Of a DNA stretch of 32,000 nt, positions 10,558-28,681 are shown piece by piece. This DNA is from Nitrosopumilus maritimus SCM1 (lineage in GTDB: Archaea; Thermoproteota; Nitrososphaeria; Nitrososphaerales; Nitrosopumilaceae): positions 390,001 to 422,000 of the forward strand of contig NC_010085.1 in assembly GCF_000018465.1 (NCBI RefSeq), written 5' to 3'. Position 1 is the stretch's first letter. Each line of letters opens with the position of its first letter. The notes below the pieces were generated by a model. The model was not told the origin of the DNA, did not search any database, and saw nothing but the letters and a program-made list of their open reading frames with translations. A program made the position numbers and the translations under genes.

Positions 10558-10566
10558 GATGTTTTT

Positions 10567-10585: not shown

Positions 10586-10591
10586 TAAATT

Positions 10592-12210: not shown

Positions 12211-12221
12211 TAATATAGTTA
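12211..12221 (-). promoter_or_regulatory. TATA-like element TAACTATATTA of P1, identical 11-mer upstream of P2 (22195..22205)
   Basis: The plus-strand TAATATAGTTA occurs 28 nt from the P1 ATG and 25 nt from the P2 ATG. Confidence 0.5.
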
Positions 12222-12230
12222 TGGGCGAAC

Positions 12231-12244
12231 TTCCAACTTTGGAA
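12231..12244. promoter_or_regulatory. Inverted repeat TTCCA-ACTT-TGGAA (site 1 of recurrent motif)
   Basis: Perfect 5-bp arms, N4 spacer. It lies 48-61 nt upstream of the P1 ATG, just beyond its TATA box. Confidence 0.5.
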
Positions 12245-12260
12245 ATTTTTTTGTAAAAAT

Positions 12261-12276
12261 TTTCCATTTGTGGAAA
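12261..12276. promoter_or_regulatory. Inverted repeat TTTCCA-TTTG-TGGAAA (site 2)
   Basis: Perfect 6-bp arms, N4 spacer. It lies 43-58 nt upstream of the giant-ORF ATG at 12319. Confidence 0.5.
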
Positions 12277-12318
12277 GTACATTCAAGCCTTTTTAGTCGT
12301 CAAAAAATTTTTTTTTCT

Positions 12319-15300: not shown

Positions 15301-18300
15301 ATTAAAAAATATGCAATATTTGGAACTTCTGCTCCTATATTTGAACATTCAGTAATAACAACTGGCAATTCTATAATCGATGATGCAAATTCAACTCCAC
15401 TAGTAGTTTCTTCTGCTATTACACTAAAAGGATATTTCCTAAATGCAAATTCAACTCCAAATGTTTCTGATTCTGGAAATACTGTTGCACAATATACAAG
15501 AACTGCATCTGATATTTTAGATGTTGCAGAACAAAATACTGAATTTAAAAATTATACTATATCAAATTCAACAACACCCGACATTGTAAGTAGTGGAATA
15601 ATTTCATTTTCTCTTTCAGCAAACTCTACTCCACTTCTAACAAGTAACGCAACATCATCAGCTGACATCTCATCCAACTCTACTCCACTTCTCTCTAGCA
15701 ATGCCACAACTGTTGCAATGTTCGTACTTGATCCATCAACTATTCCATCTGTATCTAGTACTGCAACTGTTGCATTCACTTTGTCAGCAAACTCTACTCC
15801 ACTTCTAACAAGTAACGCAACATCATCAGCTGACATCTCATCCAACTCTACTCCTGTACTATCCAGCAACGCAACATCAACTGTCATGAGAATACTCAAC
15901 GCAACATCCATCCCATCACTATTCAGTAACGCAACATCATCAGCTGACATCTCATCCAACTCTACTCCTGTACTATCCAGCAACGCAACATCAACTGTCA
16001 TGAGAATACTCAACGCAACATCCATCCCATCACTATTCAGTAACGCAACATCATCAGCTGACATCTCATCCAACTCTACTCCTGTACTATCCAGCAACGC
16101 AACATCAACTGTCATGAGAATACTCAACGCAACATCCATCCCATCACTATTCAGTAACGCAACATCATCAGCTGACATCTCATCCAACTCTACTCCTGTA
16201 CTATCCAGCAACGCAACATCAACTGTCATGAGAATACTCAACGCAACATCCATCCCATCACTATTCAGTAACGCAACATCATCAGCTGACATCTCATCCA
16301 ACTCTACTCCTGTACTATCCAGCAACGCAACATCAACTGTCATGAGAATACTCAACGCAACATCCATCCCATCACTATTCAGTAACGCAACATCATCAGC
16401 TGACATCTCATCCAACTCTACTCCTGTACTATCCAGCAACGCAACATCAACTGTCATGAGAATACTCAACGCAACATCCATCCCATCACTATTCAGTAAC
16501 GCAACATCATCAGCTGACATCTCATCCAACTCTACTCCTGTACTATCCAGCAACGCAACATCAACTGTCATGAGAATACTCAACGCAACATCCATCCCAT
16601 CACTATTCAGTAACGCAACATCATCAGCTGACATCTCTGGTTCATCAACACCATTCCTCTCAAGTAACGCAACATCAACTGTCATGAGAATACTCAACGC
16701 AACATCCATCCCATCACTATTCAGTAACGCAACATCATCAGCTGACATCTCATCCAACTCTACTCCTGTACTATCCAGCAACGCAACATCAACTGTCATG
16801 AGAATACTCAACGCAACATCCATCCCATCACTATTCAGTAACGCAACATCATCAGCTGACATCTCTGGTTCATCAACACCATTCCTCTCAAGTAACGCAA
16901 CAGTATCACTATCTGGTTCATCAACACCATTCCTCTCAAGTAACGCAACATCAACTGGAATGTTTGACATCTCATCCAACTCTACTCCATTCCTCTCAAG
17001 TAACGCAACAGTATCACTATCTGGTTCATCAACACCATTCCTCTCAAGTAACGCAACATCAACTGTCATGAGAATACTCAACGCAACATCTGAACCAGTG
17101 ATATCAAGTAACGCTACCACTGTTGCAATGTTCAATCTTAACGCAACATCAATTCCATCACTATTTGGTAACGCAACAGTATCGCTATCTGGATCCTCTA
17201 CTCCTGTACTATCAAGTAACGCAACTTATGGAACACTTGTAGCATCAGCTAACACCACTCCATTCCTCTCAAGTAACGCAACAGTATCACTATCTGGTTC
17301 ATCAACACCATTCCTCTCAAGTAACGCAACATCAACTGTGATGCACATATTATCTGCAAACTCCAGTCCGGTTGTTTCCAGTAATGCAATTACAACTGGA
17401 ATGTTTAACATCTCAGCAAACTCTACTCCTGTACTATCAAGTAACGCAACATCAACTGTCATGAGAATACTTAACGCAACATCTGAACCAGTTCTATCTG
17501 ATGATGCACAGATAACTGGAATGTTTAACATCTCAGCAAACTCTACTCCTGTACTATCAAGTAACGCAACATCAACTGTCATGAGAATACTTAACGCAAC
17601 ATCTGAACCAGTTCTATCTGATGATGCACAGATAACTGGAATGTTTAACATCTCAGCAAACTCTACTCCTGTACTATCAAGCAACGCAACATCAACTGTC
17701 ATGAGAATACTTAACGCAACATCTGAACCAGTTCTATCTGATGATGCACAGATAACTGGAATGTTTAACATCTCAGCAAACTCTACTCCTGTACTATCAA
17801 GCAACGCAACATCAACTGTCATGAGAATACTTAACGCAACATCTGAACCAGTTCTATCTGATGATGCACAGATAACTGGAATGTTTAACATCTCAGCAAA
17901 CTCCACTCCTGTACTATCTGACAATGCTCAAGTCACTGGAATGTTCACCATCAACGCAAACTCCACTCCTGTACTATCTGACAATGCTCAAGTCACTGGA
18001 ATGTTCACCATCAACGCAAACTCCACTCCTGTACTATCTGACAATGCTCAAGTCACTGGAATGTTCACCATCAACGCAAACTCCACTCCTGTACTATCTG
18101 ACAATGCTCAAGTCACTGGAATGTTCACCATCAACGCAAACTCCACTCCTGTACTATCTGACAATGCAACAAGTGATACAGTATTTGCCTTACTAACATC
18201 TGATGCCCCAAGTCTTACAGAATCAATTGATCAAATTGAGAGATATGCAATTAATGCAATAGATGTACCTGTTATTTCAGAATCTGTTGGAAAACCAAAA

Positions 18301-20613
18301 CACTCTAAACTATTGGCTACCTCAACACCTAGAATTACAGAATTTGGATTAATCGCAGGACATTATACACTTGAAACAACTTCGATCCCAGAAATATCTC
18401 ATTCTGGAAATATCCCTCCTAGAATAACATCTGCCAATGTTACATCTACTACTCAAATTGATATTGCTTTTGAACGAAACATAGATCGTAAATCTGTAAA
18501 ACCTGCTAATTTTGTTTTGACCGATCCATCCGCTACAATAAAGGGTGTAAAAACCACAAACAATGTAATAACTTTAAGACTAGATTCGGCAATCACATCT
18601 GGCCAAACCCCAACAATTGCAATTGCTGGTAATGCTGTCAAAGATACGGATGGAAACACTGTAGATAGTGTAACTGTTACTTCGGTTGACAAAGTTCCAC
18701 CAAAAGTAAAGAAAGCTTATGCTACAACAAAGTCTAGTATAGTGATTATATTTGACAAGAATGTTACTTCACAACTATCTGATTATTCCTCTCTACAAAT
18801 TCCAACAGGAACTTCCAAGACAATCTCTGGTCATACTGCTTCAGATAATGTGGTGACCTTAACAGTAAATTCTGCAGATATAACTGCACGTGCTCATGGC
18901 ACTATTACGATTTCATCTGGTCTGACTGACACAAATGGTAATTCATTTAACACTAACCACAATCCTGTATCTGTAATATCCAATATTGAGGAAGCTCCTG
19001 TAGAATTAGATGAAGATTTTACAGATTTGGTAATTACAACTGAAGAAATTGAAATTAAAGAAATTCTGGTCAAAACAAATGTCAAGGCAAAACTTGATCT
19101 TAGTAAATCTCCAACAAAAACTACCGTAACAGAAAACAGTGTAACTAAGAATAGAGTTCAAATTACAAATGAAATGAAAATCACTTCCTCAGATGGAACT
19201 GATGAAGAAGTTCAGATAGTTATTCCAAAAGATGTTTTGGTATCTGGTCCTCAAGATAAATTTACTGGCTCCATAGATTTACCTGAACCAAAGACAAACA
19301 ATTCATGTCCAATAAACCCTGATGGTAGTCAAATAGTAAGTTGTATTGCTATAGGATTGTCTGATGACGAATTAACTTTCAACAAGGCTGTAAAGATTAC
19401 AATTCCTGGCGAAGGTTCTTTGACACCTTATTACAGTACTGATAATACTACTTGGAATGCGATATCTACACTTTGTGATGCTGCTAACACTGCAGAAGTC
19501 AATGGAGTCTCAATATCTAGTGATGGTACAAGAGAATGTTACTTTGTAGATGGATCTGATATGATAATCTGGACTACTCACTTTACAGTATTTGGTACAT
19601 TATCCTCTACCTCGACTAGTTCTAGTTCAGGAGGGGGTTCCAGTGGTGATAATTCTGCTCCTTCTATAACTACTAGTATTGGACCTTCTATTACTGATAG
19701 TGGTCTTGGAGGAATTATAGGAAATACTGATCAACCATTAGTTCCTGGAGCAGAAATCAAAAACTATCCACTTGTATTTGATGGAATTGGCTATGATGAG
19801 AATAGCTTTAATTCTGTTCATACTGCAGTCATTGAAACAGAGCAACCCTTGAATGTAATTTTGAGTCTTTATGAAAATTCAGGTGCTCAAAATATTGAAC
19901 ATGTAGAAATGTATGTCAATCATTTCGGTCCTAGAGTCCTTAATGACAGAACTGAGACTGCTATTATCTATGACAAATTTACTGGCATTGAAATTCTTGA
20001 CCCATATGGTCTAATTTCTGATGCGACTGTATTGCCTACACTTTTAGATACTCAATCTCAATTTTATTTCCAAGTGTTCTTTGAAGAAGAAATTGAACAA
20101 TCTGATGTCTTGTTTAGAGTATGGGACAAAAATAGAAATTCAGTTGAATTACATTTGTCTGATGCATTAATGGTGGTAAAAGGAGAATCATCCTCTGAAG
20201 AACGCAATGTCACTGAGTCCGGAATTGTCTCTCCAACAGACCCATCAGAATCTGAAATTGTCTCTCCAGCAGACCCATCAGAATCTGAAATTGTCTCTCC
20301 AGCAGACCCATCAGAATCTGAAATCATATCTACAGAACTTCCACCTGAATCAGAAAAAATTAAAATCCCATCTGAACCTGAACTTGGAACGTATGTAGGA
20401 ATTCCTATGGACCCAGAACCTGGTATTGATGTAAACTTGCAGATGGACCCAGAACCTGGTATTGATGTAAACTTGCAGATGGACCCAGAACCTGGTATTG
20501 ATGTAAACTTGCAGATGGACCCAGAACCTGGTATTGATGTAAACAAACCAAAATCTTTGTTGGATTCAATATCTGAATTCTTTGAGGTTCTCACAAAACT
20601 GTTGAAATTCTAA
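12319..20613 (+). CDS. Giant (~2,764 aa) N-terminally membrane-anchored surface protein: 3 hydrophobic segments, two 7-repeat propeller-like blocks, ~1,000-aa N-X-S/T-rich repeat stalk, two Ig-like domains, Cys-containing globular domains, acidic C-terminal micro-repeats
   Basis: A single uninterrupted frame of 8.3 kb in stop-rich AT-rich DNA. The first ATG is at 12319 (the track used TTG at 12268, which lies inside a promoter palindrome). Domain calls come from internal repeats read in the translation. Confidence 0.85.
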   Translation: MKWEIPLLVSFVFLLGIFSSFPVVDSNFTIDENGLKHYVLTPEKNISSFDVVATSLSKYNREVDFDEQDPYFVFFLFVLLLVLLYRSNFVLQVKQSVLKTFASDYINLFLKNNFAQTLFSENKINLKEIFVILSSSNTKLQNNSTVLYRNCSNVLINSKKFFVSKKIIVVLLLFVVLIVPVYNHAYAASGDITKSLVDSFEFDNQAGSYPDIIQIDSNTFAISYQGQGSGVLSGYIQTFDIDSLGNISSLNTLQFDPDAIVYTELVAVDSDTFAIVYRSTDADGFIHTVDITGAGVITNGTNYEFDTTAGTDPQIVAVDSDTFAVVNQGGGADGWLRTLNISSDGLTISEEDSFEFDTNEGRDNDIIQVDSDTFLIVYRGVEADGFAKTINISTDGTINSVEDTLEFEPTFDAYHNAIAQVDSDTFVVAYRDIDSDGRLATLDVTSSGSITLVETYEYDTNTAQHPDIKRLDDKSFVIAYQGAGSDGFIKTIPITASGNIGTVTDTYEFDTGNGRFPSIISIDGNTVAIASRGGGNDGFLDTIFIDVELAGTDTPSFVEVDDSSKTAIIMASSTPVVVSEGLNSINPELFPASTVNPTHGFEMGIYASSTPIPAHEVTISTIKTNDTFEFDTADAETPDLVQVDTDTFAVVYKGTDNDGFIKTVDITSTGTITDTGNSLEFDTADGWTPNIVPVDTDTFAVVYNGTDSDGFVKTLNISGVGAITDTGNSLEFDIADGLYPDIVAVDSDTFAIVYTGTDTDGFIKTLNISGVGAITDTGNSLEFDTGTGIFPDILAVDSDTFVISYTGNGNDGFVKTVDITGAGVISSVIDTLEFDTSTAYETSLVKIDDDTFAVAYRGPGSDGFVKTFDIDSSGNINNSITDSLEFDTGNGREPDMVSLGSGNYGIAYRGNSNDGFFVIVTIDDAGNIGNSVVESLEYNTSNGYFPSLIGVDLNTFAIAHRGNAEDGFITTIDTSNELAFSDSDTLDVVESVDLIKKYAIFGTSAPIFEHSVITTGNSIIDDANSTPLVVSSAITLKGYFLNANSTPNVSDSGNTVAQYTRTASDILDVAEQNTEFKNYTISNSTTPDIVSSGIISFSLSANSTPLLTSNATSSADISSNSTPLLSSNATTVAMFVLDPSTIPSVSSTATVAFTLSANSTPLLTSNATSSADISSNSTPVLSSNATSTVMRILNATSIPSLFSNATSSADISSNSTPVLSSNATSTVMRILNATSIPSLFSNATSSADISSNSTPVLSSNATSTVMRILNATSIPSLFSNATSSADISSNSTPVLSSNATSTVMRILNATSIPSLFSNATSSADISSNSTPVLSSNATSTVMRILNATSIPSLFSNATSSADISSNSTPVLSSNATSTVMRILNATSIPSLFSNATSSADISSNSTPVLSSNATSTVMRILNATSIPSLFSNATSSADISGSSTPFLSSNATSTVMRILNATSIPSLFSNATSSADISSNSTPVLSSNATSTVMRILNATSIPSLFSNATSSADISGSSTPFLSSNATVSLSGSSTPFLSSNATSTGMFDISSNSTPFLSSNATVSLSGSSTPFLSSNATSTVMRILNATSEPVISSNATTVAMFNLNATSIPSLFGNATVSLSGSSTPVLSSNATYGTLVASANTTPFLSSNATVSLSGSSTPFLSSNATSTVMHILSANSSPVVSSNAITTGMFNISANSTPVLSSNATSTVMRILNATSEPVLSDDAQITGMFNISANSTPVLSSNATSTVMRILNATSEPVLSDDAQITGMFNISANSTPVLSSNATSTVMRILNATSEPVLSDDAQITGMFNISANSTPVLSSNATSTVMRILNATSEPVLSDDAQITGMFNISANSTPVLSDNAQVTGMFTINANSTPVLSDNAQVTGMFTINANSTPVLSDNAQVTGMFTINANSTPVLSDNAQVTGMFTINANSTPVLSDNATSDTVFALLTSDAPSLTESIDQIERYAINAIDVPVISESVGKPKHSKLLATSTPRITEFGLIAGHYTLETTSIPEISHSGNIPPRITSANVTSTTQIDIAFERNIDRKSVKPANFVLTDPSATIKGVKTTNNVITLRLDSAITSGQTPTIAIAGNAVKDTDGNTVDSVTVTSVDKVPPKVKKAYATTKSSIVIIFDKNVTSQLSDYSSLQIPTGTSKTISGHTASDNVVTLTVNSADITARAHGTITISSGLTDTNGNSFNTNHNPVSVISNIEEAPVELDEDFTDLVITTEEIEIKEILVKTNVKAKLDLSKSPTKTTVTENSVTKNRVQITNEMKITSSDGTDEEVQIVIPKDVLVSGPQDKFTGSIDLPEPKTNNSCPINPDGSQIVSCIAIGLSDDELTFNKAVKITIPGEGSLTPYYSTDNTTWNAISTLCDAANTAEVNGVSISSDGTRECYFVDGSDMIIWTTHFTVFGTLSSTSTSSSSGGGSSGDNSAPSITTSIGPSITDSGLGGIIGNTDQPLVPGAEIKNYPLVFDGIGYDENSFNSVHTAVIETEQPLNVILSLYENSGAQNIEHVEMYVNHFGPRVLNDRTETAIIYDKFTGIEILDPYGLISDATVLPTLLDTQSQFYFQVFFEEEIEQSDVLFRVWDKNRNSVELHLSDALMVVKGESSSEERNVTESGIVSPTDPSESEIVSPADPSESEIVSPADPSESEIISTELPPESEKIKIPSEPELGTYVGIPMDPEPGIDVNLQMDPEPGIDVNLQMDPEPGIDVNLQMDPEPGIDVNKPKSLLDSISEFFEVLTKLLKF
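12913..13970 (+). repeat. Seven tandem ~51-aa repeats (propeller-like block 1)
   Basis: Consensus .[FY]EFDT..G..P.I..VDSDTFA[IV]VY.G...DGF.KT..I...G.I, counted 7 times before a linker. Confidence 0.7.
14198..15245 (+). repeat. Seven tandem ~51-52-aa repeats (propeller-like block 2)
   Basis: Same consensus, 7 copies. Copies 2-4 share long identical DNA stretches (for example ...ttaaaaccttaaatattagtggagtaggtgcgatcactgacactggaaactcc at about 14453 and 14609, 156 nt apart). Confidence 0.7.
15811..16836 (+). repeat. In-frame tandem array, 114-nt (38-aa) period, 9 units, first 7 apparently identical
   Basis: The unit SNATSSADISSNSTPVLSSNATSTVMRILNATSIPSLF starts at 15811, 15925, 16039 and so on (period verified at several points). 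Unit 8 carries the GSSTPFL variant. Confidence 0.9.
17401..17880 (+). repeat. In-frame tandem array, 120-nt (40-aa) period, 4 units
   Basis: The unit MFNISANSTPVLSSNATSTVMRILNATSEPVLSDDAQITG repeats at 17401, 17521, 17641 and 17761. The only difference I noticed is a synonymous agt/agc change. Confidence 0.9.
17901..18167 (+). repeat. In-frame tandem array, 60-nt (20-aa) period, ~4.4 units
   Basis: The unit NSTPVLSDNAQVTGMFTINA. The lines at 17941, 18001 and 18061 are identical 60-mers. Confidence 0.9.
18415..18980 (+). other. Two consecutive Ig-like (bacterial Big_5/SbsA-like) domains within the giant ORF
   Basis: Pattern ...ITSANVTSTTQIDIAFERNIDRKSVKPANFVLTD...ITLRLDSAI...IAIAGNAVKDTDGNTV, then a second copy, KKAYATTKSSIVIIFDKNV...VTLTVNSADI...ITISSGLTDTNGNSF. 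Recognised by eye only. Confidence 0.5.
20227..20325 (+). repeat. 33-nt x3 in-frame micro-repeat (VSP[TA]DPSESEI)
   Basis: Read directly; units start at 20227, 20260 and 20293. Confidence 0.85.
20407..20546 (+). repeat. 36-nt x~3.9 in-frame micro-repeat (MDPEPGIDVNLQ)
   Basis: Read directly; units start at 20407, 20443, 20479 and 20515. Confidence 0.85.
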
Positions 20614-21034: not shown

Positions 21035-21481
21035 TTATGACTTAGAATCTGTTATTTCTTCCCATGGTGAAACAAAATATTCGTATTTGTTTGGGTGTTT
21101 TGGTGATTCTTCTACCACAAACCAAACATTGAGTCTAGATTTGTCTCCCTCTAATAGATCACATGGTATTGATAATGTTTCATCATTTCTATCATACTTT
21201 AGTTCTTCAATGATATTTTCAGATTTTACAAAATATTGATGGTCGACTATCTTATCAAAATTTTTAGCAGAAACTATACAATTGTCGTTCTCTGTATCTA
21301 AAATTTCAATTGGGATGGATGAACGAACAATATTTCTTTCAATCACTTCCTCCCAAACAACTGGTGTGTATTGGTTAAAGAACAAAAACACAAGACTATT
21401 TTCATTTGTAGCAAAAATCAAAATTAATCCCGCTGCTATTGCCAATCCTATTAAGACGATTTTGTCATTTTTTGAGCTCAA
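21035..21481 (-). CDS. N-terminally anchored hypothetical protein (148 aa)
   Basis: MSSKNDKIVLIGLAIAAGLILIF is a TM segment followed by a ~115-aa soluble domain with 2 Cys. No motif recognised. Confidence 0.55.
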   Translation of the reverse strand: MSSKNDKIVLIGLAIAAGLILIFATNENSLVFLFFNQYTPVVWEEVIERNIVRSSIPIEILDTENDNCIVSAKNFDKIVDHQYFVKSENIIEELKYDRNDETLSIPCDLLEGDKSRLNVWFVVEESPKHPNKYEYFVSPWEEITDSKS

Positions 21482-21534
21482 CGTACTGTCCTCTTACTTG
21501 GTACTAATAAAAATATAAAAAAAATGTATTTTGA

Positions 21535-22170
21535 CTAAGTTCCATCTGACTGTAGATTAAATGTGTATGTGATATCTACTGTCTCACCACTTGCTAAAGT
21601 AACATCTGATGTGTCAACTACAGCAAACAATGTTGTTGTACAATCACGAACATCATTATCTGAAGAGTCTGCATCACAAATTCCTATTGCTTCAACAGTG
21701 CTGCCTGCAAATAGGTTGTTACCAGTACCAGTACCTGCTGTAAATGTTAATGGTCCTATTGTTGCAATTTGAGAAGTACTGTCAACAGAACCATCTGTTT
21801 TACAGTTTTCTTCATCATCAGCACCACCTTCTGCTGCATCATGGTCTGTGTTGAATGTAGTGTTTGAGGTTGATTCAGCATATGATTCTGCAGCTGTTGC
21901 AGTTGTAAGGCAGATTGCACCAATTTGTGTAGCGTCAGTACCAATATCTGTTACTCCGGTAAATGCATTAGCAATTAGAAGATCTTCACCTTCATCAAAC
22001 AATTGATTGTGTACTGTTTGTGAAAGCATTTCATTTCCATTTGCATCGTGATATGTCATTGTGGCTTGTCCGTATAGGTTAAAGCCATCGTTAGTCATTG
22101 ATTGTGTTCCTGCGGGAATTACTAGAATTGCAATTAATCCTAGTAGTCCCATAGAAGCTATCTTGTACAT
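21535..22170 (-). CDS. Secreted 4-Cys protein P2 (211 aa), paralog of P1
   Basis: Signal peptide MYKIASMGLLGLIAILVIPAG. Blocks conserved with P1: DANGN, VHN.L.D.GE, TQIGAIC, NCK.D.SV, GPLTF.AG, IGIC, DTSDVTL.SGETV.ITYTF. Confidence 0.75.
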   Translation of the reverse strand: MYKIASMGLLGLIAILVIPAGTQSMTNDGFNLYGQATMTYHDANGNEMLSQTVHNQLFDEGEDLLIANAFTGVTDIGTDATQIGAICLTTATAAESYAESTSNTTFNTDHDAAEGGADDEENCKTDGSVDSTSQIATIGPLTFTAGTGTGNNLFAGSTVEAIGICDADSSDNDVRDCTTTLFAVVDTSDVTLASGETVDITYTFNLQSDGT

Positions 22171-22212
22171 TAAACAAAAAACTTGTACTGTTGTTAATAT
22201 AGTTAATTTCTA

Positions 22213-22230
22213 TTTCCCATTGATGGAAAA
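22213..22230. promoter_or_regulatory. Inverted repeat TTTCCCA-TTGA-TGGAAAA (site 3, one arm mismatch)
   Basis: It lies 43-60 nt upstream of the P2 ATG, the same position relative to the shared TATA 11-mer as site 1 at P1. Confidence 0.45.
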
Positions 22231-22262
22231 ATCCAATCTGTGGCTAAAAATTATTTTTCAAA

Positions 22263-22284
22263 TATTTCCCAACATTGGGAAATA
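22263..22284. promoter_or_regulatory. Inverted repeat TATTTCCCA-ACAT-TGGGAAATA (site 4, perfect 9-bp arms)
   Basis: Read directly. It sits in the P2/kinase divergent region, 85-106 nt upstream of the kinase ATG. Confidence 0.5.
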
Positions 22285-22368
22285 CTTCTGAGTTTAATTT
22301 TGAAAAATATGTTTCATTTTTTTTGAAAAATAATTCAAGATAAATAACATTGATGTAGATTTTTTTTA

Positions 22369-24171
22369 ATGAAAATAAAGTCAAAACTATTTTTTGGTTT
22401 TGCAGTAGTTGTATCAATCACATTATTTTTAGGAATATTGACAAACTCTCAATCAAATATTGCGTCAGATGATTTCAAATCCATTGCCGAACGCGATCTT
22501 TTAGTTATACAAAATGCTGAAAAACTACAAAGACTTGCTGTAGATTCTGAGAATGGTCAAAGAGGATTTATCATTACTGGCAATGAATCATTTCTGGAAC
22601 CATACAATAGAGGTGTAGATGAATTCTTTGTTTTACTTGAAGAAGAAAAAAACCTGGTGTCTTACAATCCATCACAAGTAGAAAAATTAGAACATATTTC
22701 TCAACTATTTTCTGATTGGATAGAATCTGCTGGTTCTCCTGAAATTGAACTTGCAAGACAAATCCATTCTTCCCAAGATGATGCTCTGGAATCCATATTG
22801 TCTAATGAATCTGATATAATTTTAGATGAAATATATCAAATAATTTTGTTATTGGAAGGAAATTTACGAGATTCTGAAAATGTGGATGGATTTTTGCTAC
22901 TTGGAAAAATCAAGGCAGATATCTATGATACTGAGGTATCTCAACGAGAATATTTGATCTCAGGAAACGAAGATTTTCTTGTCTCATTTAATAGTGTCAA
23001 AATAGAATTACGTGAAAATATTCAGAATTTAGAAAATATTCTAAAAGATGATGAAGAGAACCTCCAGTTGATTTACTCCATTGGTAAACTATATCAAAAA
23101 TGGGATCAAGAAGTCGTTTATCCCAACATTGAGTCTAGAAGAAATATTGTCGAAAATTACAATTTGAATGAAGCCTCAATCCTACTTGAAAAAGAAACTG
23201 GAAAGAGAATTCTTGATGAGATAAGAACGGAATTTTCTGAATTTATTCAAATTGAAAATGAAAACACACAACAACGATTGGAAAACTCTTTGAATAATCA
23301 AGAACTTGTTCGAAATGTAATCATTATTGTGCTTGTTGCTAGTGTCGTATCTGCAGTGGTTTTGGCATTTCTTATCCTAAATTCTGTTTTAAACCCTTTA
23401 TCAAAATTAGAAAAAGTCATTCAACAGTTCAAAGAAGGAGATTATGCCCAAAAAATAGATATCAATTCTAATGATGAATTGGGAGATTTTTCAAAATCAT
23501 TTGATGCGATTAGAGAAATTTTAATCAAAAAAGAAAAACTCAAAAACATTGGTGAGCTGGCAACTCGACTCGCTCATGATTTGCGAAATCCCCTAGCTGT
23601 TATTCAGGGTGCAGTAAATTTGATGAAAACTGATTTGCAAGAAAAAGATGAAAGTCTTGATAAACGCTTTAGAATGATTGATGCGGCAATTTTGAGAATG
23701 ACTCATCAAATCAATGACGTAATGGATTTTGTACGAGTTTCAAATCTTCAAATCGAAACTCATTCCTTATTGGAACTCTTACAGTCCTCCATATCTAGAA
23801 CAACTAAAAATGATTCAATTACAATTGAATTGCCTGAAAACGACATAAAACTACGATGTGATGCCCATAAACTGGATATTTTGTTTGTAAATTTACTATC
23901 TAACGCAATTGATGCTGTTAAAGAAAATGGAACAATCAAAATCCGCTTTTTTGATGAAACGTCTCATGTGAAGATAGAGCTTGAAGACTCTGGATCTCCA
24001 ATCCCTCCTAACATTCTTGAAGAAATGTTTGAACCATTGTTTACTACAAAACAAGTTGGTACTGGTTTAGGGCTTGCAAGCTGTAAAAATATTGTAGAAC
24101 AACATCGTGGTGAAATTTCAGCAAAAACCAATCCTACTGTCATATCTCTAACTTTATCAAAGACTCTGTAA
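22369..24171 (+). CDS. Sensor histidine kinase: TM - extracellular CHASE3-like domain - TM - HAMP - HisKA - HATPase_c
   Basis: CHASE3-type signature ENGQRGFIITGNESFLEPY (with a second half, SQREYLISGNEDFLVSF). Second TM IIIVLVASVVSAVVLAFLIL. H-box LATRLAHDLRNPL, N-box LLSNAIDAV, G-boxes EDSGSPIP and GTGLGLASC. Confidence 0.9.
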   Translation: MKIKSKLFFGFAVVVSITLFLGILTNSQSNIASDDFKSIAERDLLVIQNAEKLQRLAVDSENGQRGFIITGNESFLEPYNRGVDEFFVLLEEEKNLVSYNPSQVEKLEHISQLFSDWIESAGSPEIELARQIHSSQDDALESILSNESDIILDEIYQIILLLEGNLRDSENVDGFLLLGKIKADIYDTEVSQREYLISGNEDFLVSFNSVKIELRENIQNLENILKDDEENLQLIYSIGKLYQKWDQEVVYPNIESRRNIVENYNLNEASILLEKETGKRILDEIRTEFSEFIQIENENTQQRLENSLNNQELVRNVIIIVLVASVVSAVVLAFLILNSVLNPLSKLEKVIQQFKEGDYAQKIDINSNDELGDFSKSFDAIREILIKKEKLKNIGELATRLAHDLRNPLAVIQGAVNLMKTDLQEKDESLDKRFRMIDAAILRMTHQINDVMDFVRVSNLQIETHSLLELLQSSISRTTKNDSITIELPENDIKLRCDAHKLDILFVNLLSNAIDAVKENGTIKIRFFDETSHVKIELEDSGSPIPPNILEEMFEPLFTTKQVGTGLGLASCKNIVEQHRGEISAKTNPTVISLTLSKTL

Positions 24172-24188: not shown

Positions 24189-24422
24189 TTAGGCATTTTC
24201 AGACAATTTTCTGATATGGCTTTTTATTGATTGCTCACTTGCCAGATTTAATGCTCTTTGCAACTCTTTTTGATATGCTTCAACATTTTTCTGATTTCCT
24301 TTAATTATCTCACATTCTTCAACTAGTGGCAGTGACTGAAAATTCTTGTATTGTTCATATGTGACGGTACAAGTATAATGATTGTCTTCCTCTTTGAATC
24401 TATATTTTATTTTAAATGCCAT
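24189..24422 (-). CDS. Small hypothetical protein (77 aa), tandem paralog of 24519..24758
   Basis: Shared pattern [IR]KY[RK]FK....Y.C.VTY.QY.NF..L....ECEI. Confidence 0.55.
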   Translation of the reverse strand: MAFKIKYRFKEEDNHYTCTVTYEQYKNFQSLPLVEECEIIKGNQKNVEAYQKELQRALNLASEQSIKSHIRKLSENA

Positions 24423-24518
24423 AACATATGAGCCTCATATTAACATATTTAGTTTCGCTATTAATTAACTTGTGCTATTAATTATACTTGCACTTTATTC
24501 TTTTTTTTGAGAATGTAG

Positions 24519-24758
24519 CTAGACGTATTTTTCAGGACATGACAGTTTCTTGATGGGTGTTAACTCGTTTTTACATGCCATGTATAATGCCTCTTCTATT
24601 TCATTTTGCATACTTTGCTGTAATACTTCATCCTTGTTTGTTATTTCACATTCATCAATTGCAGATAAATTTCTAAAATTGATGTATTGTGGGTATGTTA
24701 CTGCACAAGAGTAGGACTGAGGATCGCCTTTGAACTTATATCTTATCCTCAATGGCAT
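24519..24758 (-). CDS. Small hypothetical protein (79 aa), tandem paralog of 24189..24422
   Basis: See the paralog. Both have TATA-like AT-rich upstream regions. Confidence 0.55.
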   Translation of the reverse strand: MPLRIRYKFKGDPQSYSCAVTYPQYINFRNLSAIDECEITNKDEVLQQSMQNEIEEALYMACKNELTPIKKLSCPEKYV

Positions 24759-24852: not shown

Positions 24853-25629
24853 ATGGGTGAACCCGATGTTGTACCTGAAAGACTATCAAATCCTCTAAAT
24901 CGATACATCATTTTTGGAATTTTGGTAGCGGGAGTTATCATTTTCACATCAATGAATGTGTTCAATGAAGATGATGTGAGCATTTTTGCATTTGTTATCT
25001 CGGTTTCACTTACAATCTGTCTTTCTATATTTTGCTTCATTGTATCAAAGAAACACGAAACAGGCCTTTTAGCCAAATCTTATCTTTCCTTGGGCTTAGG
25101 ATTTACTTCCTATCTTGTGGCTGAATTATTGTATTATACATTTGACTTAATCCTGGGAATTGAGGCTTATCCTTCAATTGCTGATATCTTCTTTTTTGCT
25201 CTCTATCCCTTTGTTCTAGGCCATCTGCTCTTAAACATCAGATATTTTCATTCAGGTTACACCACTTTAGAAAAAATCTGGATTCCGATAATCCCTATTA
25301 TTGCATTAATTGTCTATGTTGCTTTGTCTCTAAGCATCCCTGATGCTGAATTGAATTTTGACTTTTACTATGGTTTTATTTTTGTAACTGGCGCATCTTT
25401 CACATTATCTTTTACCATTTTGGGGGCTTCTATTTTTAGACAAGGAATATTGGGCGCAGTTTGGTTGCTACTCGTTATTGGACTGATGATTAATGCTGCT
25501 GGAGATGTTTGGTACTATCATCTAGAAATATTTGGCCTGTATTTTGATGCTCATCCTGTAACTACTGTTTGGTATGTTGCAAATATGTTCATCATCTATG
25601 CTTTATGGAAACAGCTTAAAACTACCTAG
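24853..25629 (+). CDS. Polytopic membrane protein (258 aa, ~7-8 TM), unknown function
   Basis: Hydrophobic segments throughout. No motif recognised. Confidence 0.6.
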   Translation: MGEPDVVPERLSNPLNRYIIFGILVAGVIIFTSMNVFNEDDVSIFAFVISVSLTICLSIFCFIVSKKHETGLLAKSYLSLGLGFTSYLVAELLYYTFDLILGIEAYPSIADIFFFALYPFVLGHLLLNIRYFHSGYTTLEKIWIPIIPIIALIVYVALSLSIPDAELNFDFYYGFIFVTGASFTLSFTILGASIFRQGILGAVWLLLVIGLMINAAGDVWYYHLEIFGLYFDAHPVTTVWYVANMFIIYALWKQLKTT

Positions 25630-26150
25630 ATTGATACCCATTCAGATTCTGCATTGAATTTTGATTTGTATCTCCTCATTCTTTTTAGCACTAACTCTGC
25701 AGTATTTCTGACACTTTCATTCTCATCCTGACATGATCTTTTCATTGCATCTATCTGATCAGTTGCTCTGATGATCATTAAACACTCAGTTGCTTCATGA
25801 CGTACTAGTGGACTAGGATCATAATTTGCAGCATATGCAAGTTCTGGAATAATTCTTCTCATGTTTCTAGCTGCTATCTGATAACATACTTCATGGCGTA
25901 CAACATCATTATCATCATTTTTCAAAACCCATGCAAACAAATCTGTCGTCTTTTCAAACAGTGGTCCTTTAAGACCAACCTCCACTGGTATTTCTCCTGC
26001 AAGCCATACGGCATCCCATCTTTCAGATTCATCTTTTGATGTCTTGAATATCTCTTCTAATTTCAAAAATCTCTCTTCAAGTGGCATAGCCTTGATAATT
26101 TTATCAAACTCGTCTGGAATATTGACTGTACTCATGGTAGGTGATAACAT
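25626..26150 (-). CDS. HEAT-repeat (PBS-lyase HEAT-like) protein
   Basis: Repeated D..[SDN].VR.EA...L units: DESERWDAVWLAGEI, DDNDVVRHEVCYQIA, DPSPLVRHEATECLMII, DENESVRNTAELVL. Confidence 0.7.
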   Translation of the reverse strand: MLSPTMSTVNIPDEFDKIIKAMPLEERFLKLEEIFKTSKDESERWDAVWLAGEIPVEVGLKGPLFEKTTDLFAWVLKNDDNDVVRHEVCYQIAARNMRRIIPELAYAANYDPSPLVRHEATECLMIIRATDQIDAMKRSCQDENESVRNTAELVLKRMRRYKSKFNAESEWVSI

Positions 26151-26241
26151 GTGAATTTACTACTATTTCAATTTTTGGCAAATTATTAGGATATAGATAT
26201 ATGCTTATTCCCATTATTGGAACTCATGGGTCAAATCAATA

Positions 26242-27243
26242 ATGAGCGTGGTATCTAAATTCCAGCCCACCTATGAAAACTTAAGAAAATCAAAAATCAA
26301 TAAAATTTCCCTATTTTCAAAATTAAAAAGTAAAACCGTCGGTGTGGGTTTTTTATTTGCTATTTTAGCTGCTGCATTTTCGGCATTACCTAATGTTATA
26401 CCAAAGTCATTTTTGGATGCACATGCTGTAGATACTTCAACAATTCCAAATCCCCTGATGTTGGTTTTTGTGATTTATGTTGTAAACAGTTTACTGTTTT
26501 CTCCATTTCGTAAGTCTCAAAGAGAACATGAAGTAAAAAAAACAAGTCGAATGACTTTGTTTTTGTTAATATTGCTTGGAGCAGTAGAGGCCTCAGGAAC
26601 ATTAACTTATACATTTGGACTCCAAGAAACTAGTGCAACAAATGCTTCTATCTTAGTAAATTCTGAAACTGTTTTTGCCATTTTACTAGGCATTATGATC
26701 TTTAGAGAAAAATTAAGTAAACAAGAAGTTTTGCCATTTTTCCTAATTGTTGCAGGTTCAATCTTGATTCCCGTTGGTGCTGATATTCAAAACAACGAAT
26801 GGGAATTGTCTGATTTCATGATGGGTGATTTACTTATTGTTATGTCTGGATTTTTTTACTGTCTTGACACCTTTATTGCCAAAAAACTAGATGATTCCAT
26901 CAAAACTCGTCATATAGTCCACATTATGTCCTGCACTGGTGCAATAATGACTTTGGGATTAATGTTGTTCTTTGAAATCCCATTTGATATTTCGTTTGAG
27001 GAATTATCTGTAATGTCTTTTGTTGGATTTTTGGGAATTGGTGTTACTATGATGTTTTTTGTCATTGCATTAAGATTAATTGGTGCTGTAAGGACTGTTC
27101 TAATTTACTCATCTACGACTATATTTAGCATAGTCTATTCAATTTTGATTTTATCTGAAGGGCTTACAATTTTGAATATTGTATCTACATCTAGCGTGCT
27201 AATTGGGTTGTTTGTTCTTCGTAATAGGGTGGGGTCTGATTAA
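26242..27243 (+). CDS. EamA/DMT-superfamily transporter
   Basis: About 10 TM segments in two halves, with typical EamA-like segments (ASILVNSETVFAILLGIMIFREKLS; VLIYSSTTIFSIVYSILILSEGLT). Confidence 0.7.
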   Translation: MSVVSKFQPTYENLRKSKINKISLFSKLKSKTVGVGFLFAILAAAFSALPNVIPKSFLDAHAVDTSTIPNPLMLVFVIYVVNSLLFSPFRKSQREHEVKKTSRMTLFLLILLGAVEASGTLTYTFGLQETSATNASILVNSETVFAILLGIMIFREKLSKQEVLPFFLIVAGSILIPVGADIQNNEWELSDFMMGDLLIVMSGFFYCLDTFIAKKLDDSIKTRHIVHIMSCTGAIMTLGLMLFFEIPFDISFEELSVMSFVGFLGIGVTMMFFVIALRLIGAVRTVLIYSSTTIFSIVYSILILSEGLTILNIVSTSSVLIGLFVLRNRVGSD

Positions 27244-27266: not shown

Positions 27267-27282
27267 TTCCCAAATTCGGGAA
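27267..27282. promoter_or_regulatory. Inverted repeat TTCCCA-AATT-CGGGAA (site 5, one inner mismatch)
   Basis: It lies 71-86 nt upstream of the HTH-B ATG. Confidence 0.4.
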
Positions 27283-27352: not shown

Positions 27353-27952
27353 ATGCCTGGATTAGACAGTCTTCTTGCTAACTCCTTGAAGGAATCCATT
27401 ACAAAAGATCTTGGAAAAGGTATGGTTAAAAAAATCGAAGATCGTTTGTTTGAAAAATATGGTATTTCATTTGCTCAGTCAATTGAGAATTTTGATAAAT
27501 TAGATCTAGTTCTAAGGGAATTCTTTGGCAAGGGAACAGATGGTTTAGAGAAAAAATTCTTTGAAACAATCTTTCAATCAAAATCAAAGAACTCAAAGGA
27601 TGGATGGTACCAATTACGTGATGAAAACTTGTCACAAATGATTCTACAGTCTTTTGGTGATCCTGAAAAAAAGGCAATTTTAGAATCAGCTACTGAAACT
27701 CCAAAAATAATCACTGACATCATTAAAGATTGTAATCTATCTCAGACATCTGGTTACAGAAAAATTAACAGTTTAATCGATGACGGTTTACTCTATAAAA
27801 CAGGACATATTGTTCGTGACAATAAAAAAATCAACAAGTATGTCTGCTCATTTAGTAATCTTCGAATTAATATTGAAAATAAAAAGACAAGTGTGGAATT
27901 ACAGTTAATGGATAATGAGCAGAGCTTATTTGTTCAAACCATCAAAGCTTAG
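27353..27952 (+). CDS. Putative DNA-binding protein HTH-B (paralog of 10592..11197)
   Basis: Full-length similarity to HTH-A. The HTH-like segment is IITDIIKDCNLSQTSGYRKINSLIDDGLL. Confidence 0.6.
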   Translation: MPGLDSLLANSLKESITKDLGKGMVKKIEDRLFEKYGISFAQSIENFDKLDLVLREFFGKGTDGLEKKFFETIFQSKSKNSKDGWYQLRDENLSQMILQSFGDPEKKAILESATETPKIITDIIKDCNLSQTSGYRKINSLIDDGLLYKTGHIVRDNKKINKYVCSFSNLRINIENKKTSVELQLMDNEQSLFVQTIKA

Positions 27953-28159
27953 ATACAAATTCATTGTTACAGATTTTGGAATAGAGAAATAACTGATTTT
28001 AATTCATTATCTGATTCCATCTAATCTAACACAAAACTATCCTAATTAGATACCTGAAATTCCTAAATTCAATCAAATATTGTTGAATTCTTAAGATTAT
28101 ACCGTATGAAACCAATAATCTATTACTACGCAGTAAAAAATGACTAACGGTTAAATATC

Positions 28160-28177
28160 ATTTCCAGATATGGAAAT
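28160..28177. promoter_or_regulatory. Inverted repeat ATTTCCA-GATA-TGGAAAT (site 6, perfect 7-bp arms)
   Basis: It lies 7-24 nt upstream of the RR-B ATG, downstream of a TTAAATAT box. That is an operator-like position over the expected transcription start. Confidence 0.5.
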
Positions 28178-28183
28178 AATACC

Positions 28184-28570
28184 ATGAAGACAGCAATTGT
28201 TGTAGATAACGATCATGATATTGTTGAGGTATTTTCTGACCTTTTAGAGATGCTAGAATTTGATGTTATTTCTAAAGGATATGATGGCGGCGATGCTATA
28301 ACAATGTATGAAAAATTCAAACCAGATGTAATTTTCATGGATGTGCATATGGAAGAAATGCATGGAGATCAAGCACTAAAAGAAATTAGAACAATTGACA
28401 AGGATGTAAAGGTAGTAATGGTAACTGGGGATATGTCAAAATCTATGGAAGATACATTGGAAAAATATGGTGCATCGGCAATAATTCACAAACCCTTTGA
28501 CATTAAAATCATAAATGAAATTATTACTGAACTAGAAAATGCAACTTCTATAGTAATCCAAAAAGCATAA
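28184..28570 (+). CDS. Receiver-only (CheY-like) response regulator, RR-B
   Basis: VVDNDHD, FMDVHMEEMHG (acceptor Asp), VMVTGD and IHKPF motifs. No output domain. Confidence 0.9.
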   Translation: MKTAIVVDNDHDIVEVFSDLLEMLEFDVISKGYDGGDAITMYEKFKPDVIFMDVHMEEMHGDQALKEIRTIDKDVKVVMVTGDMSKSMEDTLEKYGASAIIHKPFDIKIINEIITELENATSIVIQKA

Positions 28571-28603: not shown

Positions 28604-28681
28604 TGGTGCTCCCACCGGGATTTGAACCCGGGTCACAGCCTTGAGAGGGCTGTATGCTTAACCGGACTACACTATGGGAGC
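28604..28681 (-). tRNA. tRNA-Glu (anticodon CUC), CCA encoded
   Basis: Hand-folded: GCTCCCA/TGGGAGC acceptor, CAGCC-CTCTCAA-GGCTG anticodon arm, CCGGG-TTCAAAT-CCCGG T arm, and ACCA end. Confidence 0.9.

Follow-up and report, generated by a model that had tools for sequence, protein, structure and literature searches.

A promoter architecture shared by two paralogous secreted-protein genes of Nitrosopumilus maritimus, and a palindromic motif that links them to a signalling cluster

What reads the DNA between P2, a gene for a secreted protein, and the sensor histidine kinase gene that diverges from it, and could the same reader act on other genes nearby? Few microbes in the ocean are as abundant as the ammonia-oxidising archaea, and to our knowledge almost nothing has been established about how these archaea regulate their genes. 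About three-quarters of their response regulators are bare receiver domains whose output is not known (PMC5847659). The 32,000-nucleotide stretch of the N. maritimus SCM1 genome analysed here (hereafter, the window) brings together within 20 kb a short motif, a few target promoters of fixed geometry, two candidate DNA-binding proteins, two receivers, and a sensor kinase. For positions 22195–22284 taken as a whole, the best explanation, which we favor with moderate confidence, is that they hold the archaeal core promoter of P2 together with two predicted sites for a dimeric factor. A full-text literature search found no description of this motif or regulon.

P2 (21535–22170, minus strand) encodes a protein of 211 aa from a Nitrosopumilus-specific family, and sequence comparison identifies a paralog, P1 (11560–12183, minus strand), with which it shares 44% identity. 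The first-pass annotation of the window had noted that the same 11-mer lies upstream of both genes, at nearly the same distance from the ATG and followed by a palindrome at the same relative position, and had concluded that promoter architecture was retained with the paralogs. These observations hold. The 11-mer TAATATAGTTA lies at 22195–22205 and 12211–12221 and nowhere else in the window as an exact copy (a whole-window count of 2 versus 0.03 expected, with 0 of 100 shuffles reaching 2); it stands 25 nt from the start codon of P2 (ATG 22170) and 28 nt from that of P1 (ATG 12183), and an identical gap of 8 nt separates it from the 16-bp palindrome core in P2 (22206–22213) and P1 (12222–12229). 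When 351 pairs of upstream regions from the window were compared, P1/P2 proved to be the pair with the longest word shared in register.

An archaeal core promoter is an A/T-rich element of about 8 bp centered about 26 nt upstream of the transcription start. We read the minus-strand P2 element (coding-strand TAACTATATTA, −35 to −25 from the ATG) as a putative TATA box with adjoining BRE-side bases and its P1 counterpart (minus strand, −38 to −28 from ATG 12183) as the equivalent. Within the P2 upstream region, CTATATTAAC falls at −32 to −23 from the ATG, the same place as the TATA-like element of most genes in the window, a position that fits leaderless mRNAs; the P2 element would thus be placed for a leaderless or near-leaderless message. 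The segment TA-CTATATTA is invariant across nine aligned P-type promoters and is more strongly conserved than its flanks, as is typical of an archaeal BRE and TATA core promoter; this segment and the P1 11-mer are also kept in two P1-type loci (L081 and L083). Across related loci, the whole arrangement of TATA/BRE element, 8-nt gap, and palindrome persists in both P2-type (L001, L002, L007, L021, L078, L079, and L080) and P1-type (L081, L083, L005, and L044) promoters, while the surrounding bases and the palindrome centers drift, and it is under selection. By the first-pass annotation's own criterion, its reading would fail if related P-family promoters lacked the motif; in those compared from the marine Nitrosopumilus clade, the motif is present.

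The palindrome itself can be written as tTYCCA-N4-TGGRAa, a motif of 16 bp. In the window, TYCC-N6-GGRA matches 8 times (0.97 expected) and TYCCA-N4-TGGRA 6 times (0.18 expected), both counts above those of every shuffle. A weight-matrix scan of the window returns seven sites scoring at least 17, all of them intergenic, with the next best at 11.2; two lie between P1 and the giant gene, two between P2 and the kinase gene, and one each between the HEAT and EamA genes, upstream of the winged-helix gene, and upstream of the receiver-only regulator gene. In 203 kb of related loci, the true inverted repeat with this spacing occurs at 16 intergenic sites, or 20 when four sites are added that a crude open reading frame mask had labeled coding (through spurious in-frame extensions across promoters) and that we reassigned from the gene map; in the same 203 kb, spacers of 4 or 5 give no match, the everted form gives one, and the direct form gives three. 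Positions that played no part in site selection are biased as well, with A at position 5 and T at position 10 in 89% of cases and the flanking T/A in 76%. In the nine aligned P-type promoters, the T-CCA/TGG-A bases of both sites are invariant and the N4 center and flanks vary. With its fixed half-site spacing, conserved half-sites, free central spacer, intergenic enrichment, and fixed position relative to the core promoter, the palindrome is best read as the predicted binding site of a dimeric transcription factor. In more distant P-family clades, from sediment and soil, the motif is missing and different palindromes occur. Since our counts cover the window and related loci (a genome-collection scan with a P-family profile gave 6 loci, and a metagenome scan gave 67, mostly on short contigs), the regulon could be larger than the sampled loci show.

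Two of the strong sites lie in the P2/kinase region. The proximal one, TTCCCATTGATGGAAA (22214–22229; score 20.7), is centered 51.5 nt ahead of the P2 start codon, with 8 nt between it and the 11-mer, and it is identical in L001, L002, and L078 and conserved at the same position in L007, L079, L080, and L021. The version given in the first-pass annotation, TTTCCCA-TTGA-TGGAAAA, is present at 22213–22230, with one mismatched arm position. The distal site, TATTTCCCAA-CA-TTGGGAAATA (22263–22284, core 22266–22281), scores 21.2 and is indeed the best copy of the motif, as had been proposed; it had been described as TATTTCCCA-ACAT-TGGGAAATA with perfect 9-bp arms, and that part needs amending, as the arms are perfect over 10 bp around a 2-nt center. 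Its arms TTCCCA/TGGGAA are kept in L001, L002, and L078, and its center varies (ATGT, TTAT, GTAT, and ATAT).

Who, then, uses the distal site? The gene on the other side (22369–24171, plus strand) encodes a sensor histidine kinase with Pfam CHASE3, HAMP, HisKA, and HATPase_c domains, and its physical link to P2 is strong: the divergent arrangement of the kinase gene with P2 and o21035 recurs in eight P2-type contigs and three genomic contexts, with the whole cassette inverted in L001. The further suggestion that the kinase gene shares the operator stands on different ground. The kinase gene appears to have its own TATA-like element, GATAAATAAC (22339–22348, plus strand, −30 to −21 from the ATG), at the position typical of genes in the window and with equivalent bases kept in L001 and L002, and the distal palindrome lies at a distance from the kinase start codon that differs between loci (73–116 nt), so a shared operator is unproven. 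The word operator, in the repressor sense, is also a poor fit at the P promoters, where the site immediately precedes BRE/TATA, as the sites of archaeal activators usually do. The distal site is probably auxiliary, cooperating with the proximal site, or else a remote upstream site for the kinase gene.

The P1 side of the window repeats the pattern. The giant repetitive surface protein (about 2760 aa; 12319–20613, plus strand) is encoded divergently from P1, and between the two genes lie CTTCCAACTTTGGAAA (12230–12245; score 17.2), centered 54.5 nt upstream of the P1 ATG, and TTTCCATTTGTGGAAA (12261–12276; score 20.7), centered 50.5 nt upstream of ATG 12319. Both are kept in L081 and L083, and in L005 the counterpart of the second lies 52.5 nt from a giant-like gene. 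Across nine P-type promoters, centers of the proximal sites are held within a narrow range: −51 in P2, L001, L002, L005, L007, L021, and L044, with L023 at −50 and P1 at −54. The spacing between paired sites is 31–32, 43–44, 52–53, or 63–64 nt, versus 68 nt in L005 and L044, values suggestive of helical phasing that fall into too few independent classes to decide the matter.

The first-pass annotation caught only part of the picture, for the motif also marks a conserved cluster of winged-helix, receiver, EamA, and HEAT genes. In the window, this cluster comprises a HEAT-repeat protein gene (25626–26150, minus strand), an EamA-family transporter gene (26242–27243, plus strand), a gene for a winged-helix protein of 199 aa (27353–27952, plus strand), and a gene for a receiver-only response regulator (28184–28570, plus strand; Pfam Response_reg), the conserved neighbor and probable partner of the winged-helix protein. 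Palindrome TTCCCATTATTGGAAC (26208–26223; score 20.0) follows a TATA-like run, with 18 nt separating it from the EamA ATG; it is identical in L001 and present in L078, and its counterparts in N. piranensis and N. ureiphilus lie directly before the EamA start. Upstream of the receiver gene, TTTCCAGATATGGAAA (28161–28176; score 19.7) is found between the putative TATA element TTAAATAT (28151–28158) and the ATG, a layout that is the same in L001 and L076; in five genomes, the response-regulator and EamA genes carry the site between TATA and start codon. The seventh site, TTCCCAAATTCGGGAA (27267–27282; score 18.4), is 78.5 nt upstream of the winged-helix gene and is degenerate in other genomes (L001, L074, L075, and L076, at −77.5 to −79.5). 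A TATA-like run directly before this site was considered as the winged-helix promoter and set aside, because its sequence is not kept in N. piranensis, N. ureiphilus, or strain K4; the conserved TATA of that gene is ATAATATTAATAAC, at −35 to −22.

The four genes are neighbors in the window, L001, L078, N. piranensis, N. ureiphilus, and strain K4, in an order that differs among genomes and with the motif carried in each; the remaining ~85 kb of the 20-kb loci bearing the cluster yielded no other high-scoring site. In cultured species such as N. piranensis, we found the motif-bearing cluster but not the P-family genes or the CHASE3 kinase. The window has a second pair of the same kind, in which a paralogous winged-helix gene (10592–11197, plus strand; 30% identity) and a second receiver-only regulator gene (10165–10557, minus strand; Pfam Response_reg) diverge from one another and the winged-helix paralog adjoins P1/giant in the window, L081, and L083. 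Its promoter was searched for a copy of the motif, and none was found; the candidate TTCTCTTTGTGGAA (10536–10549), 50 nt upstream of the paralog, was dismissed because it is not conserved in L081–L083. The translations show the H-box of the kinase (AHDLRNP) as well as the receivers' acidic and Asp residues, features that characterize a two-component system.

What kind of protein is the 199-aa candidate? An AlphaFold model (pLDDT 81.7, and 88–95 over residues 91–170) places an ArsR-like winged helix at its C terminus, and the top Foldseek matches are NolR, CzrA, SmtB, CadC, Phr, and PH1932, with weak E-values (about 2e-3), a target-relative TM-score of about 0.6, and an rmsd of 2.5 Å over 75 residues, which supports a winged helix-turn-helix fold. 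Family models are less decisive: Pfam matches to TrmB, HTH_27, HTH_20, ArsR, and HTH_45 all fall below threshold, and in a PDB profile search, an AsnC regulator is matched with E = 0.019 and ArsR with E = 0.16. The recognition-helix residues TSGYRKxNxLI are invariant across the family, the 10592–11197 paralog included. Based on co-localization and the modeled fold, we propose that the palindrome is most likely bound by the 27353–27952 protein and possibly by its paralog as well.

Do the repeats have to be protein-binding sites at all? Inverted repeats could act as RNA, whether as stem-loops in 5′ leaders or as terminators or stabilizers of divergent transcripts, and the best copy does fold to −10.6 kcal/mol (z = −3.65), with 12253–12284 and 28153–28184 showing a modest advantage over shuffled sequence. 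The proximal P2 site and the 12230 site (two of the five sites) fold no better than shuffles, however (z = −0.8), and each proximal site precedes the TATA box of the gene from which it keeps its fixed distance. It is also the specific bases that are conserved and not the pairing, the TTCCCA...TGGAAA hybrids (with a C-A mismatch in the EamA direction) being unchanged across genomes, and we found neither a T-run after the repeats nor an Rfam match; on folding, hybrid half-sites, T-run, and Rfam alike, an RNA hairpin or intrinsic terminator fails, and we hold an RNA role to be very improbable. We give still less credence to the idea that the shared layout is a functionless leftover of P1/P2 duplication or gene conversion and that the other motif copies arose by chance. 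Inherited upstream similarity is conceivable for paralogs at 44% identity, but the two upstream regions are unrelated outside the 11-mer and palindrome arms, unconstrained noncoding DNA would be randomized at this protein divergence, these elements stay unchanged between loci even where protein identity is 57–82%, and motif counts that exceed every shuffle argue against chance. A specialized BRE/TATA variant is another matter: the 11-mer is unusually conserved for a generic TATA box, and genes of the TFIIB family are found close to related cassettes in L076, L079, and L080, so might it set selectivity for one TFB/TBP paralog, with the palindromes secondary and architectural? In the P-type promoters of three loci (L005, L044, and L023), the TATA sequence is a different one, TTTAATAAAATAA, but the palindrome stays at about −51 (−50 in L023), which makes it the more constant feature, and no consistently linked TFB gene was found; we judge this explanation improbable.

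Granting that a dimeric factor binds the palindromes, the most serious doubt is whether that factor is encoded here. It could be an Lrp/AsnC-, TrmB-, or MarR-type protein encoded elsewhere, with the winged-helix and receiver genes as mere targets, and several facts would suit such a protein: the winged-helix link to the motif rests on co-localization and fold, the promoter of the paralog beside P1 lacks a site, and in L079 and L080, the kinase/P2 cassette carries both sites apart from a 27353-type cluster within the available sequence. Arguing the other way, the motif travels with the winged-helix/receiver/EamA/HEAT cluster in five genomes through several rearrangements and is absent from the other ~85 kb of those loci. 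Prokaryotic regulators most often have sites in their own cluster, as autoregulation needs, which also counts against a distant factor. We therefore regard a factor encoded elsewhere as unlikely, though well above the other alternatives in our estimation, and continue with the winged-helix protein as the candidate.

If the winged-helix protein is the factor, what would it do? Archaeal activators at the BRE side recruit TBP and TFB, and archaeal repressors between TATA and start codon block RNA polymerase. We posit a small local regulon in marine Nitrosopumilus that would take in the P-family secreted proteins with their o21035 partner, the giant surface protein, and the signalling cluster. An ArsR-like winged-helix dimer would occupy the palindromes; its activity would be set by the adjacent receiver-only regulators, which would in turn be phosphorylated by histidine kinases such as the CHASE3 kinase beside P2. 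At the P and giant-gene promoters, where the site abuts the BRE side and is centered about 51 nt before the ATG, binding would activate, and at the response-regulator and EamA genes, where it falls between TATA box and start codon, binding would repress and provide negative feedback. Site position thus suggests activation at surface-protein promoters and repression at the factor's own cluster; as factors bound upstream of BRE can repress too, the direction of regulation is a guess from position. In this scheme, the receiver-only regulators and the separate ArsR-like winged-helix proteins would together make up a "split" response regulator, with the signal running from CHASE3 kinase to receiver to a dimer on TTYCCA-N4-TGGRAA, turning P-family and giant genes on and feeding back on the cluster. 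We offer this as a tentative possibility, one that we would stop short of calling probable.

How does this compare with known systems? In Pyrococcus furiosus, heat-shock regulation is the task of Phr, which binds as a dimer to a palindrome immediately 3′ of TATA and blocks RNA polymerase. The candidate resembles Phr (PDB 2p4w) in its size of about 200 aa and, by Foldseek, its winged-helix fold, and the response-regulator and EamA sites have the Phr geometry. It differs in that the winged helix is N-terminal in Phr and C-terminal, behind a helical domain, in 27353–27952; sequence similarity is below threshold, the window also has sites upstream of BRE, and the input, heat in Phr, would here likely be a receiver protein. 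Ptr2 (Methanocaldococcus), TFB-RF1 (Pyrococcus), EarA, and ArnR (the last two at archaellum promoters) are archaeal activators that bind just upstream of BRE. Like the predicted P-promoter factor, they have sites abutting the BRE side and cell-surface targets, but their protein families and motifs differ, and activation in the present case is a prediction. Bacterial ArsR/SmtB repressors are proteins of about 100 aa that sense metals or redox state and bind inverted repeats as dimers; NolR, CzrA, SmtB, and CadC give the best structural matches to the candidate's DNA-binding domain, and the candidate has in addition an N-terminal helical and a C-terminal beta domain.

Comparable in gene content are the thaumarchaeal receiver-only regulators found next to ArsR/HTH_20-type genes (arCOG03067; e.g., Nmar_0452-0453), whose interaction is untested (Galperin et al. 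2018, PMC5847659). As in those pairs, a stand-alone receiver sits beside a small winged-helix gene in the window, divergently at 10165–11197 and in tandem at 27353–28570; the paper reports gene neighborhood only, without motif, targets, or kinase, and the HTH_20 matches in the window are below threshold. In Methanosaeta harundinacea, the FilI kinase is described as working with FilR1, a DNA-binding winged-helix regulator, and FilR2, a receiver-only regulator (PMC3991700, as summarized in PMC5847659), a combination like the one proposed here. According to that summary, winged helix and receiver are fused in a single FilR1 protein; here they are encoded by separate genes, so any signal would need to pass by protein-protein contact.

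If the split-regulator model is correct, it would supply the first regulon and DNA motif to be defined for any thaumarchaeal two-component system and would explain in concrete terms how the receiver-only regulators of archaea act on transcription. With motif, targets, and candidates inside 20 kb and the cluster present in cultured species, receiver-only control is directly testable. The findings also suggest that very large surface proteins are expressed under regulation, a point relevant to attachment and to interactions with viruses or grazers. What the P proteins themselves do is less easily read: P2 gave no Pfam match, its AlphaFold model (pLDDT 72) returned no informative fold match, and a weak likeness to a Haloferax virus tail protein (E = 0.015, TM 0.35) was not taken as a basis for assigning function. 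Their genomic partner is clearer. The gene o21035 (21035–21481, minus strand), which encodes a membrane-anchored protein of 148 aa, always lies directly 3′ of P-family genes and is therefore a probable operon partner; by tblastn, this synteny is seen in L001, L002, L004, L018, L022, L027, L028, L039, and L057.

The upstream regions of P1 (11560-12183, minus strand) and P2 (21535-22170, minus strand), paralogous secreted-protein genes whose products are 44% identical, share a layout that is well above chance. The identical 11-mer TAATATAGTTA stands at 22195-22205, 25 nt from the minus-strand start codon of P2 (22170), and at 12211-12221, 28 nt from that of P1 (12183), with no third copy in the window (two exact copies versus 0.03 expected). 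At both promoters, exactly 8 nt separate the 11-mer from a 16-bp palindromic core. The P2 palindrome (22213-22230) has a single mismatch in its arms, and the distal one at 22263-22284, on the side of the divergent CHASE3 histidine kinase gene (22369-24171, plus strand), is a perfect 10+2+10 inverted repeat. In 351 pairwise comparisons of window upstream regions, the longest in-register shared word is that of P1 and P2. Each sequence detail given in the first-pass annotation proves accurate. The claim of the first-pass annotation that promoter architecture was retained between the P paralogs, together with a common regulatory motif, is borne out; its label “operator” is probably wrong at the P promoters. 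Given that the window (G+C content of ~33%) comes from a marine ammonia-oxidizing archaeon, archaeal promoter rules apply, under which a BRE and TATA box precede the start site by ~26 nt and mRNAs are often leaderless. The feature is of an ordinary kind, a predicted transcription factor site in archaeal promoters. Its surroundings include genes for ribosomal protein L10e, a tRNA-splicing endonuclease, the CHASE3 kinase, and two receiver-only response regulators, and window proteins are 60 to 97% identical to those of Nitrosopumilus genomes.

How far does the motif extend beyond P1 and P2? With generalized arms, TYCC-N6-GGRA has eight window matches versus 0.97 expected, seven of them intergenic; TYCCA-N4-TGGRA has six versus 0.18. 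An alignment of 26 sites, drawn from the window and from related loci, shows bias even in columns that the search pattern left free (89% for A at position 5 and for T at position 10; 76% for the flanking T/A), and we therefore write the motif as tTYCCA-N4-TGGRAa. A weight matrix scan of the window returns seven sites scoring 17 to 21, all intergenic, versus 11.2 for the best background; the matrix was partly trained on these seven, so this gap is descriptive, and the independent evidence is that from other genomes. Two sites lie between P1 and the giant repetitive surface-protein gene (12230-12245 and 12261-12276), and two between P2 and the kinase gene (22214-22229 and 22266-22281). Of the others, that at 26208-26223 lies between the genes for a HEAT-repeat protein and an EamA transporter, that at 27267-27282 precedes by 78 nt a 199-aa gene without a Pfam match, and that at 28161-28176 stands directly ahead of a receiver-only regulator gene. 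Related loci totaling 203 kb contain 16 intergenic matches to the inverted form at the motif spacing (20 with the ORF mask corrected) and none to variants with a spacer of 4 or 5, with one match to the everted and three to the direct form; N7 and N8 matches are the same sites read through CCC/GGG runs. A literature search found no account of this motif. A weak copy with one mismatch, TTTCAATTTTTGGCAA at 26166-26181 (TTTCAATTTTTGGAAA at 11997-12012 of L076, a related locus), lies ~23 nt upstream of the HEAT gene start codon and is kept in two distant genomes; it may be a low-affinity site over the HEAT gene core promoter.

Related loci from genome and metagenome scans and contig look-ups (L numbers) include P2-type loci (L001, L002, L007, L021, L078, L079, and L080; proteins ~62 to 82% identical to P2) and P1-type loci (L081, L083, L005, L044, and L023). 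Across nine aligned promoters, T-CCA and TGG-A in both palindromes and TA-CTATATTA in the core element are invariant, and variation falls in the flanks and in the central four bases of each palindrome; the distal site, TTCCCA-ATGT-TGGGAA in the window, has the center TTAT in L001, GTAT in L002, and ATAT in L078. Between the center of the proximal site and the start codon, the distance is 51 nt for P2, L001, L002, L005, L007, L021, and L044, 50 nt for L023, and 54 nt for P1, and this ~51-nt position holds despite another TATA sequence (TTTAATAAAATAA) in L005, L044, and L023. The second site between P1 and the giant gene (12319-20613, plus strand) is 50.5 nt from the giant gene start codon (52.5 nt in L005), such that each divergent gene has its own site at an equal distance; L081 and L083 keep both sites and the 11-mer. 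The motif is absent from more distant P-family clades (sediment and soil), where different inverted repeats take the corresponding position, a pattern that suggests that a regulator and its site co-diverged with the P family. These other-clade repeats, conserved before the TATA box, include TGTGTG...CACACA or CCAATTTGG with TCCATATGGGA, and the P-family genes of these clades (L008-L017, L019, and L024-L058) come after a gene ending ...ENGTKHYV....

The proposal that the sensor is tied to the surface-protein module stands in its physical part. The kinase gene, divergent from P2 and o21035 (a membrane-anchored protein gene; 21035-21481, minus strand), is found in the window, L078, L001, L002, L021, L079, and L080. 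This cassette (21035-24171) is inverted as a unit relative to its neighbors in L001, a related complete genome (8003-11112), and has another genomic context in L079 and L080, where its neighbors are radical-SAM, HTH_5, and CoA-ligase genes; the three cassette genes therefore move together, and the recurrence of the pair across loci and contexts indicates that the link is real. That the kinase gene shares the site is conjectural: a separate TATA-like element, GATAAATAAC, stands before it at −30 to −21, the usual position for window genes, and is kept in L001 and L002, and the distance from the distal palindrome to the kinase ATG is 95.5 nt in the window, 94.5 nt in L001, 73.5 nt in L002, ~92 nt in L078 and L080, and 115.5 nt in L021, in contrast to the fixed ~51 nt at the P and giant genes. 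The distal palindrome is clearly under selection; it may serve the kinase gene or act jointly with the proximal palindrome of the P2 promoter. The seemingly empty 680-bp gap after the kinase gene holds two small genes (24189-24422 and 24519-24758, both minus strand) for stand-alone NitrOD1 domains (PF18549; 43.7 and 45.8 bits, cutoff of 25), otherwise fused to receiver domains in Nitrosopumilus; the pair recurs in L078, and one such gene adjoins a receiver gene in L076. Neither gene is preceded by a tTYCCA-N4-TGGRAa palindrome; ATATGAG-C-CTCATAT (24426-24440; 7-bp arms) is immediately upstream of the first, and the similar ATGCTCATAC precedes the second.

The 199-aa gene (27353-27952, plus strand) has a paralog at 10592-11197 (plus strand; 30% identity), and each adjoins a receiver-only regulator gene (28184-28570, plus strand, and 10165-10557, minus strand; products 39% identical). 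Its homologs are widespread in Nitrosopumilus, and in N. piranensis, N. ureiphilus, strain K4, L001, and L078 the gene is always near receiver, EamA, HEAT-repeat, and 258-aa membrane protein genes. Gene order varies, and none of these clusters lacks the motif. In the window, L001, and K4, it separates the TATA box of the receiver gene from the start codon; in N. piranensis and N. ureiphilus, it holds this position at the EamA gene. Upstream of the winged-helix gene, at 77.5 to 79.5 nt, stands a more degenerate copy, which in the latter two species separates the start of the divergent HEAT gene from its TATA box; the rest of these 20-kb loci has no further high-scoring site. The 34-nt gap between the other, divergent receiver/winged-helix pair is filled by a perfect palindrome, ATAACAAA-ATC-TTTGTTAT (10567-10585; 8-bp arms), kept in L081, L082, and L083 and overlapping the facing TATA-like elements TTTTTATAA and, on the opposite strand, TTTAATAAC. 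It may be merely two back-to-back core promoters, or it could be the operator of the 10592-11197 paralog.

The AlphaFold model of the 199-aa protein (pLDDT of 81.7; 88 to 95 across residues 91 to 170) combines an N-terminal helical domain with a winged helix-turn-helix and a beta sheet at the C terminus. The closest solved structures are ArsR/SmtB-type winged helices (NolR, CzrA, SmtB, and CadC) and the archaeal regulators Phr and PH1932, with weak E values (~2e-3) and target-relative TM-scores of ~0.6; Pfam gives only subthreshold matches, to TrmB, HTH_20, ArsR, and HTH_45. Residues T132, G134, Y135, R136, and N139 of the predicted recognition helix are invariant family-wide, paralog included, and thus the two paralogs could recognize a common half-site. 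In thaumarchaea, as Galperin and co-workers pointed out, receiver-only genes are in some cases divergent from ArsR/HTH_20 genes, with a putative interaction of the products; they described no motif or targets for such pairs (PMC5847659).

We posit that a dimeric winged-helix factor binds the palindrome; from binding onward, every step is what we infer. At the P and giant gene promoters, the palindrome, 8 nt from the BRE/TATA block on its upstream side, would be in an activator position; the archaeal activators Ptr2, TFB-RF1, and EarA act from this side. At the receiver and EamA genes, it spans the stretch from TATA box to start site, a putative repressor position, and the archaeal repressors Phr, MDR1, and LrpA act there. 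Given these two positions, one factor could turn on surface proteins and damp its own signaling cluster, with the receiver proteins providing the input and kinases, e.g., the CHASE3 sensor, acting upstream of these proteins.

Could other readings account for the palindromes? The binding factor may instead be encoded elsewhere in the genome, although this is less likely. A role at the RNA level is improbable: of five sites, two show folding no better than that of shuffled sequence, the TATA box is downstream of the proximal sites, pairing is disrupted by conserved hybrid half-sites, no T-run follows the repeats, and the only Rfam matches are two tRNAs. A neutral relic of the P1/P2 duplication is excluded by the conservation pattern. 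The 11-mer may be a specialized TATA/BRE read by a TFB paralog, but the palindrome is more constant than the 11-mer. What makes these sites of value is that they form a compact candidate, open to test, for the first thaumarchaeal two-component regulon.

The tRNA genes are tRNA-Gly(GCC) (7883-7959, minus strand) and tRNA-Glu(CTC) (28604-28681, minus strand), the latter directly after the palindrome-bearing receiver gene. The giant gene contains near-perfect long tandem repeats within 15811-18169 and 20407-20544 (114 bp × 9.3, 97% identity; 120 bp × 4.4, 99%; 36 bp × 3.8, 100%) that code for Ser/Thr/Asn-rich units; GC skew is strongly negative at 16 to 18 kb, and gene calls differ among relatives (pieces in L081; two open reading frames, of 733 and at least 2,356 aa, in L078). 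Finally, the 416-bp gap upstream of an Na+/H+ exchanger gene holds the palindrome ATAGTACGGTA-TGG-TACCGTACTAT (5872-5896; 11-bp arms), whose G+C content is unusually high for the genome and which has an exact copy in L081 (5236-5260).
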